Both the position numbers and the translations under genes were made by a program. DNA of 64,000 nucleotides from Escherichia coli (lineage in GTDB: Bacteria > Pseudomonadota > Gammaproteobacteria > Enterobacterales > Enterobacteriaceae), in the NCBI RefSeq assembly GCF_022846255.1, contig NZ_AP025682.1, one strand, 5' to 3'. A model generated the notes under the pieces. It did not search any database, had not been told where the DNA came from, and saw only the letters and a program-made list of their open reading frames with translations. The stretch's first letter is position 1; each line of letters opens with the position of its first letter. Below, piece after piece: positions 2,793 through 48,358 of this stretch.

Positions 2793-2806
2793 TGCATTTA
2801 CATGCA
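2793..2806. promoter_or_regulatory. perfect palindrome TGCATTTACATGCA in AT-rich fhuE upstream region; candidate repressor (Fur-like) site
   Basis: Palindrome read directly from sequence about 85 bp upstream of the fhuE start; Fur regulation of fhuE is established knowledge, the site assignment is a guess. Confidence 0.25.
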
Positions 2807-2888: not shown

Positions 2889-5078
2889 ATGCTTTCAACA
2901 CAATTTAACAGGGATAATCAATATCAAACCACCTCCAAACCGTCACTGCTTGCCGCCTGCATAGCACTGGCACTCTTACCTTCCGCCGCTTTTGCTGCAC
3001 CAGCCACTGAAGAAACGGTGATTGTTGAGGGTTCAGCCACTACTCCAGTTGATGACGAAAATGATTACAGCGTAACGTCTACGTCTGCGGGTACCAAAAT
3101 GCAGATGACTCAACGTGATATTCCTCAGTCGGTCACTATTGTTAGTCAGCAGCGGATGGAAGATCAGCAGTTACAAACGCTGGGCGAAGTGATGGAAAAC
3201 ACGCTGGGGATCAGCAAAAGCCAGGCGGATTCCGATCGTGCTCTTTATTATTCCCGCGGATTCCAGATCGATAACTATATGGTTGATGGTATCCCCACCT
3301 ATTTTGAATCGCGCTGGAATCTGGGCGACGCACTTTCTGATATGGCACTGTTTGAACGCGTAGAAGTAGTGCGTGGCGCGACAGGACTCATGACCGGGAC
3401 GGGTAATCCATCTGCGGCAATTAATATGGTTCGAAAACACGCGACCAGTCGTGAATTTAAAGGCGATGTCTCGGCGGAATACGGTAGCTGGAACAAAGAA
3501 CGGTATGTGGCGGATTTACAAAGCCCACTCACCGAAGATGGTACAATCCGCGCACGAATTGTCGGCGGCTACCAGAATAACGACTCATGGCTGGACCGCT
3601 ACAACAGTGAAAAGACCTTCTTCTCCGGCATTGTCGATGCTGATTTAGGCGATCTTACGATGCTTTCAGCCGGTTACGAATATCAGCGTATTGATGTTAA
3701 TAGCCCAACCTGGGGCGGTTTACCGCGCTGGAATACTGATGGCAGCAGCAACAGTTACGATCGCGCACGCAGTACCGCACCTGACTGGGCGTACAACGAT
3801 AAAGAGATCAACAAGGTCTTTATGACCCTGAAGCAGCGGTTTGCTGATACCTGGCAAGCGACGCTGAATGCCACCCACTCTGAAGTCGAATTTGACAGCA
3901 AAATGATGTATGTCGATGCCTATGTAAACAAAGCGGATGGTATGCTGGTTGGGCCATACAGTAATTATGGCCCTGGTTTTGATTATGTCGGAGGCACCGG
4001 TTGGAACAGCGGCAAACGTAAAGTTGATGCGCTGGATCTGTTCGCTGACGGTAGTTATGAATTGTTTGGTCGTCAGCACAATTTAATGTTTGGTGGCAGT
4101 TACAGCAAACAAAACAATCGTTACTTCAGTTCATGGGCCAACATTTTCCCGGATGAAATTGGCAGTTTCTACAACTTTAATGGCAATTTCCCACAAACCG
4201 ACTGGTCACCACAGAGCCTGGCGCAGGACGATACCACACATATGAAATCGTTATATGCTGCCACTCGTGTCACCCTTGCCGATCCGCTGCATCTGATCCT
4301 CGGCGCACGTTATACCAACTGGCGAGTTGATACGCTGACTTACAGCATGGAGAAAAACCACACCACGCCTTATGCTGGACTGGTGTTTGACATCAATGAT
4401 AACTGGTCGACCTACGCCAGCTATACCTCTATTTTCCAGCCGCAAAATGATCGTGACAGTTCAGGCAAATATCTGGCTCCAATCACCGGTAACAACTACG
4501 AGCTGGGTCTGAAATCGGACTGGATGAATAGCCGTCTGACCACCACGTTAGCCATCTTCCGTATTGAGCAGGATAATGTCGCTCAGTCCACCGGTACACC
4601 TATCCCCGGCAGCAACGGCGAAACCGCCTATAAAGCGGTGGATGGGACAGTCAGTAAAGGTGTGGAATTTGAACTCAACGGCGCAATTACCGACAACTGG
4701 CAGCTGACGTTTGGCGCAACGCGCTATATTGCAGAAGATAACGAAGGAAACGCCGTTAATCCTAATCTGCCACGCACCACGGTTAAAATGTTCACCAGCT
4801 ACCGGTTGCCTGTCATGCCAGAGTTGACGGTCGGCGGTGGTGTTAACTGGCAAAATCGCGTGTATACCGACACCGTGACACCGTATGGCACCTTCCGCGC
4901 CGAGCAAGGTAGCTACGCGCTGGTGGATCTCTTCACCCGCTACCAGGTGACGAAAAACTTCTCGTTACAGGGGAACGTCAATAACCTGTTCGACAAAACC
5001 TACGATACCAACGTGGAAGGTTCTATCGTCTACGGCGCACCGCGTAATTTCAGCATTACCGGCACGTATCAATTCTGA
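2889..5078 (+). CDS. fhuE: TonB-dependent outer-membrane ferric-siderophore (coprogen/rhodotorulic acid) receptor
   Basis: 729-aa ORF with signal peptide (ALLPSAAFA), TonB-dependent receptor character and C-terminal aromatic residue (…GTYQF). Confidence 0.9.
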   Translation: MLSTQFNRDNQYQTTSKPSLLAACIALALLPSAAFAAPATEETVIVEGSATTPVDDENDYSVTSTSAGTKMQMTQRDIPQSVTIVSQQRMEDQQLQTLGEVMENTLGISKSQADSDRALYYSRGFQIDNYMVDGIPTYFESRWNLGDALSDMALFERVEVVRGATGLMTGTGNPSAAINMVRKHATSREFKGDVSAEYGSWNKERYVADLQSPLTEDGTIRARIVGGYQNNDSWLDRYNSEKTFFSGIVDADLGDLTMLSAGYEYQRIDVNSPTWGGLPRWNTDGSSNSYDRARSTAPDWAYNDKEINKVFMTLKQRFADTWQATLNATHSEVEFDSKMMYVDAYVNKADGMLVGPYSNYGPGFDYVGGTGWNSGKRKVDALDLFADGSYELFGRQHNLMFGGSYSKQNNRYFSSWANIFPDEIGSFYNFNGNFPQTDWSPQSLAQDDTTHMKSLYAATRVTLADPLHLILGARYTNWRVDTLTYSMEKNHTTPYAGLVFDINDNWSTYASYTSIFQPQNDRDSSGKYLAPITGNNYELGLKSDWMNSRLTTTLAIFRIEQDNVAQSTGTPIPGSNGETAYKAVDGTVSKGVEFELNGAITDNWQLTFGATRYIAEDNEGNAVNPNLPRTTVKMFTSYRLPVMPELTVGGGVNWQNRVYTDTVTPYGTFRAEQGSYALVDLFTRYQVTKNFSLQGNVNNLFDKTYDTNVEGSIVYGAPRNFSITGTYQF

Positions 5079-5137: not shown

Positions 5138-6571
5138 TTAGTGGTTACGGATGTACTCATCCATCTCGGTTTTCAGGTTATCGGATTTAGTACCGAAAAT
5201 CGCCTGAACACCAGAACCAGCAACCACTACGCCCGCTGCGCCCAGTTTCTTCAGGCCAGCCTGATCCACTTTAGACACATCAGCAACGCTGACGCGCAGA
5301 CGGGTAATACATGCGTCGAGGTTAGTAATGTTTTCTTTACCACCAAATGCAGCAACCAGAGCCGGTGCCATTTCGCTGGTACCTGTCGCTTTTGCATCTT
5401 CAGTCGCATCTTCACGACCCGGCGTTTTCAGATCCAGTGCTTTAATCAGCACGCGGAAGATGGTGTAGTAAACAATGGCATAACCGATACCGACGATCGG
5501 GAACAGCCACAGTTTGCTGCTGTTACCAGACAGAACGATGAAGTCGATCAGACCGTGCGAGAACGACGTACCGTCACGCATCCCCAGAAGAATACAGATT
5601 GGGAATGCCAGGCCTGCCAGAATCGCGTGGATGATGTACAGGATCGGCGCAACGAACATGAAGGAGAACTCGATCGGCTCGGTGATACCGGTCAGGAACG
5701 AGGTCAGCGCCGCGGAGATCATAATACCGCCCACTTTCGCGCGGTTTTCTGGTTTAGCAGAGTGCCAGATAGCAATTGCGGCAGCTGGCAGACCGTACAT
5801 TTTGAACAGGAAGCCACCAGACAGTTTACCCGCAGTCGGGTCACCCGCCATATAACGCGGAATGTCGCCGTGGAAAACCTGACCTGCTGCGTTGGTGTAT
5901 TCACCAATCTGCATCTGGAAAGGTACGTTCCAGATGTGGTGCAGACCAAACGGTACCAGGCAACGTTCGATGAAACCGTAAATGCCAAACGCAACTACCG
6001 GGTTCTGGTAAGCAGCCCACTGAGAGAAGGTCTGGATTGCAGAACCAATCGGCGGCCAAATGAAGGACAGCACAACGCCAGTAAAGATAGCAGCCAGGCC
6101 TGAAATGATCGGCACAAAGCGTTTACCGGCAAAGAAGCCAAGATACTCAGGCAGCTTAATACGGTAGAAACGGTTAAACATATACGCTGCAATCGCACCG
6201 GAGATAATCCCTCCGAGTACGCCAGTATCCGCCAGGTGTTTAGAGGCGATTTCTTCAGCAGGTAAATGCAGTACCAGTGGCGCAACCACGGCCATGGTTT
6301 TAACCATGATGCCATAGGCAACAACTGCGGCCAGCGCGGATACGCCATCGTTATTGGTAAAGCCGAGGGCGACACCGATCGCAAAAATCAGTGGCATGTT
6401 TGCAAAGACGGAACCGCCTGCTTCTGCCATAACATGCGATACAACGGCGGGCAGCCAGCTGAAATTCGCGGAACCGACGCCCAGCAGAATACCTGCGATA
6501 GGCAGTACGGATACCGGCAGCATCAGCGATTTACCGACCTTTTGCAGGTTAGCAAATGCATTCTTAAACAT
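5138..6571 (-). CDS. ptsG: PTS glucose-specific EIICB component
   Basis: 477-aa polytopic membrane ORF; leader upstream carries the sequence AAAGCACCCAUACUCAGGAGCACUCUCAAUUAUG that I recognise as the ptsG translation-initiation region. Confidence 0.95.
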
Positions 6572-48097: not shown

Positions 48098-48358
48098 TTT
48101 TTCCGCACTGACATAAACTGACAAATATTTAATCTCCCTTTCATTTAGCGTGAAAAATTGAATGAGATTCTTCCTGCCTCTACAGCACTCACTAGACCTT
48201 CCAGATGCTGAACCCACTAAACTTATGAAGATTCTTTCATTATTAATTCAAAATTATTGAAATAAAAATAAATATCATTCAATTTGTTATTTTTGTGTTG
48301 CAATTCATTCTCCGACACGCCATTTTCTTTCTCTCGCAAATTCGTTTTGGATGTACTT

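Follow-up and report, generated by a model that had tools for sequence, protein, structure and literature searches.

The DNA analysed here (64,000 nucleotides, called the window in what follows) belongs to the E. coli chromosome. It contains fhuE, the regulated gene of interest, whose coding sequence occupies 2889-5078 on the plus strand and specifies the ferric coprogen/rhodotorulic acid receptor (NCBIfam equivalog, 1538 bits), flanked by the open reading frames of hinT (2196-2573 as listed) and ptsG (5138-6571), both on the minus strand. The string that we have studied, TGCATTTACATGCA, is found at 2793-2806, in an intergenic region of 43% GC and 83-96 nt 5' of the fhuE ATG at 2889; the first-pass annotation had put it about 85 bp upstream of fhuE. 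The locus is nearly universal in the species: all but one of 5,426 complete E. coli genomes contain the 341-bp region round the string.

The string had been introduced as a perfect palindrome, and this is wrong. Its reverse complement is TGCATGTAAATGCA, so that six of the seven pairs match and T2798 faces C2801 as a mismatch. It is better described as an inverted repeat with 5-bp arms (TGCAT/ATGCA) that enclose a 4-nt spacer, TTAC, without symmetry, and it can be extended to 7-bp arms (TTTGCAT/ATGCAAA, 2791-2808) in which eight of nine positions pair. Near-palindromes of this kind are not enriched in the window over shuffled sequence: 14-mers pairing at six or more of seven positions number 96 in the 64 kb (shuffles give 87 +/- 9), and 18-mers pairing at eight or more of nine number 8 (shuffles give 6 +/- 2). 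The DNA around the string is a degenerate 6-bp tandem array (TCTCAT TTGCAT TTACAT GCAAAA), and the inverted repeat exists because two self-complementary TGCA tetramers sit 10 bp apart in that array. We also considered an NsrR-like core, ATGCATTT; the TGCA cores are separated by 10 bp here, as against 11 bp in what we take to be the NsrR consensus.

A promoter scan proposes a sigma70 promoter for fhuE on the plus strand (10/12, with a 17-bp spacer), made of a -35 hexamer TTTACA at 2757-2762 and a -10 hexamer TATATT at 2780-2785. The columns of the -10 are 98-100% conserved over 50 species, and both hexamers, together with their 17-bp spacing, are kept in about 50 species of Enterobacteriaceae. 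This predicted promoter ends 7 nt before TGCATTTACATGCA. Extrapolation from the -10 element would place the fhuE transcription start site at about 2792-2794, and a TTTACA-17-TATATT promoter at 2757-2785 would put the string at about +1 to +15 of the transcript; a literature search for a mapped fhuE start site or a promoter study found none. Further into the fhuE leader, a stem at 2833-2858 (GCTCA...TGAGC) has a counterpart in Citrobacter (GTTCA...TGAAC), and among 16 Escherichia and Citrobacter sequences it shows one covarying pair (U-A in 8, C-G in 7).

Regulation of fhuE by Fur is documented by several published data sets, which can be mapped to the window. Fur represses a lacZ fusion to the fhuE promoter (PMC4676285), and RNA-seq in eight strains finds fhuE raised by 3.0-8.4 log2 in fur deletion mutants (PMC10164565). 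Chen et al. predicted in 2007 a Fur site of 12.4 bits for fhuE at K-12 coordinate 1160880 (PMC2189734), and Dataset 2 of the Fur pan-regulon study reports for MG1655 a ChIP-exo peak, P31, at 1160863-1160895 under iron-replete conditions only (PMC10164565). These coordinates follow the U00096.2 numbering, in which the fhuE ATG is at 1160774, with no indels between K-12 and the window over the interval; peak P31 maps to 2768-2800 and the centre of the 2007 site to 2783. Four more strains, all colinear with the window, have 13-bp peak windows at 2784-2796 (W3110), 2778-2790 (BL21(DE3)), 2781-2793 (ATCC 8739) and 2788-2800 (CFT073), their peak centres spanning 2784-2794. Occupancy of the fhuE operator by Fur in vivo has thereby been recorded by ChIP-exo in five strains, all of them without the TG allele that the window carries at the right arm of the string.

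Other Fur signals lie nearby, within coding sequence. Peak P32 of MG1655 (1161165-1161198, labelled 'hinT' and seen in both iron-replete and iron-starved cells) maps to about 2465-2498, which is inside the hinT coding region and not intergenic. Inside fhuE, at codons 7-13, the segment 2907-2925 contains GATAATCAATATC and is the best match of the whole window to the textbook 19-bp Fur consensus (14/19; 7.5 bits by the trained matrix described below); this Fur-like site is conserved in Escherichia and not in Citrobacter. The Fur peak published for Sakai would land exactly on 2907-2925 if the coordinates of NC_002695.1 and NC_002695.2 agree at that place; the published coordinates are those of NC_002695.1, and NC_002695.2 is 128 bp longer overall.

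Counting matches to the textbook consensus gives no discrimination in the fhuE promoter, where the best 19-mers reach 11/19 and the best 15-mers (7-1-7) 10/14, both values being common in the window. We used a 19-bp Fur matrix whose training set was the regulatory intergenic DNA of 14 classic Fur operons of K-12, with fhuE excluded (28 sites; consensus GAAAATGATAATGATTATC; 15.1 bits). ChIP-exo peaks were dropped as a direct training set, the peaks of ryhB, fec, mntH and nrdH lying 60-100 bp from the classical boxes. As a validation, the top sites of the matrix fall inside ChIP-exo intervals at entC (two sites), cirA, feoA and nfeF.

When the fhuE promoter is scored with this Fur matrix, a check that the first-pass annotation had proposed, three overlapping matches follow one another in a 6-bp register at 2765-2801, namely 2765-2783 (6.2 bits), 2777-2795 (8.6 bits) and 2783-2801 (6.9 bits). 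These scores are modest, as the best of them ranks 33rd in the 64 kb and 43 positions reach at least 8 bits. The cluster agrees with the K-12 footprint at 2768-2800, and it overlaps both the predicted -10 (2780-2785) and the predicted start site. Read on the minus strand, the operator is GTAAAT GCAAAT GAGAAA, that is, Fur hexamers of the GnnAAT type, and 2776-2790 matches the ChIP-exo motif TGAnAATnATTcTCA at 10 of 13 positions. The case for a Fur operator at 2765-2801 rests mainly on the ChIP-exo of strains without the TG allele, the matrix scores being modest. The suggestion of a Fur site in the neighbouring AT-rich DNA (2770-2830) is thus upheld by the ChIP-exo footprint, by the centre of the 2007 site and by the matrix cluster. 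It was equally correct not to take the 14-mer itself for a Fur box: the 19-mer over its right arm (2799-2817) scores only 2.3 bits, and its left half alone overlaps the matrix matches.

The top match of the matrix in the window is found elsewhere, at 48258-48276 upstream of yceJ-yceI (16.3 bits), and it forms with a second match of 14.1 bits the strongest pair (48258-48282), located just upstream of yceJ, which codes for a cytochrome b561 homologue, and of yceI. A Fur ChIP-exo peak has been reported for yceI/yceJ in strains W, KO11 and CFT073 (PMC10164565), and the position of the top match thus serves as a further validation of the matrix.

The fhuE operator resembles the E. coli Fur operators built as arrays of GATAAT-type hexamers (fepA-fes, entC, cirA, fhuF) in its overlapping matches in a 6-bp register over the -10 and in its ChIP-exo footprint of about 33 bp, present under iron-replete conditions only. 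The hexamers GCAAAT and GTAAAT of fhuE fit the GnnAAT pattern of the matrix, and GCAAATGCAAAT occurs also in the fepA-fes site. It differs from typical E. coli Fur boxes, on the other hand, by its poor match to the textbook 19-mer (11/19 at best) and by a core that is far more conserved across genera.

This conservation was measured after a scan for FhuE in species-representative genomes, which gave 54 loci; the columns were computed from 50 distinct sequences. A 25-nt core, AATGCGTATATTTCTCATTTGCATT, at 2774-2798, carries about 2 bits per column over the 50 species representatives and covers the -10, the best Fur match and the left arm of the string; written across species, the block is AATGCGTATATTTC[T/G]CATTTGCATT. 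The left arm TGCAT (2793-2797) lies inside both the Fur operator and this invariant core. The right arm ATGCA (2802-2806) is outside the Fur footprint and outside the matrix cluster, and its conservation declines base by base (0.84, 0.74, 0.58, 0.62 and 0.42) to reach background at 2807. As read from the alignment, such a profile is that of a footprint edge and not of a two-armed site. In Escherichia, Citrobacter, Enterobacter and Leclercia the right arm shows more conservation than the background, which the Fur matrix leaves unexplained. We also note that the 25-nt core is invariant over about 50 species of Enterobacteriaceae although their FhuE proteins are only 55-98% identical. Judging from the alignment, this invariance exceeds what a Fur box and a -10 typically need, and other constraints may overlap there.

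Within E. coli, 2767-2802 is invariant and the variation begins immediately after it. Positions 2803-2805 are hypervariable, with TGC in the window, AAC in K-12, BL21 and ATCC 8739, TAC in ST648 and APEC, TAT in CFT073, CAC plus an extra A in FP4 and AHB7, and AGC in O157. The palindrome is absent from K-12 because K-12 reads TTTACAAACAAAA where the window has TTTACATGCAAAA. The K-12 allele belongs to a 100%-identity class of 2,648 genomes (up to 240 of which are partial alignments of the O157 type), and no more than 262 of the 5,426 complete genomes (about 5%) have the exact 56-bp allele of the window. The right arm ATGCA thus has at least six alleles in the species and is missing from K-12 and from some 95% of the complete genomes. 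A first comparison with K-12 made the allele of the window look like a derived, strain-specific oddity; the cross-genus alignment reversed this reading, since CATGCA is found in other Escherichia lineages and in most Citrobacter (with CATGCG in Enterobacter, Leclercia, Lelliottia and others) and is the ancestral form.

Two further observations concern this variation. In E. coli, hypervariability is found in one more cluster, the spacer just 3' of the -35 (2763-2766), with the alleles CGTC, TGAC, CACT, CTCC and CGAC between invariant flanks. At the other end, 2799-2818 is a second, weak Fur-like site, GCAAAATTATTCGCA (10/13 against the ChIP-exo motif), and the alleles that break the symmetry have higher scores at 2799-2817 than the one that keeps it (2.3 bits with TG, 4.6 with TA and 6.9 with AA, the K-12 form), so that the loss of the palindrome in K-12 coincides with a gain in Fur-likeness.

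The first-pass annotation had left room for a site of a different regulator, and we have weighed the hypothesis that TGCAT-N4-ATGCA serves as operator for another regulator, a dimer working alongside Fur at fhuE. The string does share with the palindromic operators of dimeric helix-turn-helix regulators a pair of inverted arms of 5-7 bp near a promoter, the ancestral allele has both arms, as do many species of Escherichia, Citrobacter, Enterobacter and Leclercia, and the conserved stretch gives out at about 2806, where the string ends. It differs from such operators in being imperfect, in having one polymorphic arm and in that no matching regulator was identified. Arm pairing reaches 0.56, compared with 0.13-0.27 in slid controls, but this excess is expected, the structure having been derived from these very sequences. 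The five pairs of the arms are all Watson-Crick in only 8 of the 50 species, for which reason a conserved, two-armed symmetric operator was rejected; the symmetry occurs at chance frequency around an asymmetric spacer, and the invariance of the left arm is already accounted for by the Fur operator. Since, moreover, K-12 and some 95% of the complete E. coli genomes have lost the right arm, which has six or more alleles and a conservation that falls to background, a different regulator finds no support, and we hold the existence of a second operator here to be very improbable.

A second hypothesis is that the inverted repeat acts as RNA, forming at the 5' end of the fhuE mRNA a hairpin that would guard the transcript from 5'-end-dependent decay; the leader of ompA is an example of a stabilising mRNA stem-loop in this terminal position. 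The resemblance is that the allele of the window has a predicted hairpin at the predicted 5' end: a start at about 2792-2794 would set the 7-bp stem at the very beginning of the transcript, where it folds at -5.3 kcal/mol (z = -2.3), and the inner stem persists in half of the species (25 of 50) once G-U pairs are counted, a figure to be compared with the 8 of 50 in which all five pairs are Watson-Crick. This start is, however, a prediction from the -10 only, and the hairpin departs from the known terminal stem-loops in that it is unconserved, lacks covariation and is absent from K-12. The alleles of K-12 and ST648 are unfolded (0 kcal/mol), and a sequence of the Enterobacter type gives -2.7 kcal/mol (z = -0.5). 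The 50 species contain no compensatory changes; no pair has changed on both sides because the left arm never varies. A search of Rfam returned no match. A protective 5' hairpin is, in our opinion, quite unlikely.

One may also ask if the right arm supplies one more Fur-type hexamer, in inverted orientation, in which case the whole 18-bp symmetric string would extend the Fur operator in the strains that carry the ancestral allele. Fur operators are said to be arrays of direct and inverted hexamers, a description reportedly established by Escolar and colleagues in 1998. Read in reverse complement, TGCAAA (2803-2808) is identical to the Fur-type hexamer TTTGCA (2791-2796), and the intermediate conservation of the right arm is what one would expect of an accessory hexamer. 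Against this stand the low score of the right-arm 19-mer (2.3 bits), which increases to 4.6 and 6.9 bits with the TA and AA alleles that destroy the symmetry, and the K-12 footprint, which ends at 2800. We consider this extension of the operator unlikely as well, to much the same degree as the hairpin.

Our preferred reading is that TGCATTTACATGCA lies across the downstream boundary of the fhuE promoter-operator and is, with good probability, not an element in its own right. Its symmetry is imperfect, coincidental, at chance level and strain-specific, and it falls on the downstream margin of the Fur operator. In the mechanism that we propose, RNA polymerase would use TTTACA as -35 and TATATT as -10 and start at the predicted position, about 2792-2794; iron-bound Fur would sit on in-phase hexamers at about 2765-2801, over the -10 and the start site, and would repress fhuE by occlusion, presumably on the allele of the window as on the others. 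The left arm TGCAT would be part of the last two Fur-type hexamers, and the right arm ATGCA would lie just past the operator, in weakly constrained DNA.

The finding as first stated matters little, fhuE being a textbook Fur-repressed gene whose Fur site was predicted in 2007 and mapped by ChIP-exo; the fhuE Fur operator is already known, and so is the VNTR-25 typing locus that coincides with it. What remains of interest are two by-products, the near-perfect 25-nt core across Enterobacteriaceae and the fact that the VNTR-25 unit is a Fur-type hexamer inside the operator.

The latter point needs some explanation. The degenerate hexamer array CATTTG-CATTTA-CATGCA at 2789-2806 is the 2-unit state of the MLVA locus VNTR-25, also called TR4, the unit of which is TGCAAA on the minus strand. 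The published description gives a 6-bp unit, TGCAAA, with 2-15 repeats and 6 alleles in 202 isolates (PMC3321953). The identity of the site follows from the primers: those of TR4 map to 2604-2623 (0 mismatches) and 2918-2936 (3 mismatches, exact in O157), and the PulseNet primers for VNTR-25 map to 2731-2766 (1 mismatch) and 2819-2852 (0 mismatches). The window and the MLVA locus of O157:H7 thus share the genomic site, the flanking primer pairs and the unit; they differ in that the window has two degenerate units, and O157:H7 has perfect CATTTG units, four in Sakai and 5.3 in ATCC 43890 (L006 420-451). Tandem Repeats Finder, run on the window, called no array. In O157:H7 ATCC 43890, RefSeq lists a hypothetical protein of 62 amino acids, WP_001301946.1, that spans the fhuE promoter and the VNTR (L006 317-505; open reading frame 2686-2856 in the window). 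This open reading frame is probably spurious, and the MLVA literature places VNTR-25 outside any open reading frame (PMC3321953).

On the minus strand the VNTR unit, GCAAAT, scores as a Fur-type hexamer. A pure (CATTTG)3 reaches 8.9 bits by the Fur matrix, and every unit added in O157 gives one more in-register match. The largest fur-dependent change of fhuE, 8.38 log2, was reported for Sakai in what is a single uncontrolled comparison (PMC10164565). Our literature search found no paper connecting VNTR-25/TR4 with fhuE or Fur, the locus being treated as a typing marker. We put forward, quite tentatively and as a suggestion more likely to fail than to hold, that VNTR-25/TR4 is an expansion of Fur-type hexamers within the fhuE operator, whose copy number (2-15) could tune the repression and derepression of the coprogen receptor by Fur.

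If this were true, each unit would add an in-register site between the -10 and the start codon, the ancestral symmetric allele of the window would be the 2-unit ground state, and a marker regarded as 'neutral' would be a contingency-like regulatory locus. If copy number does affect repression, MLVA alleles would carry phenotypic information on siderophore piracy.
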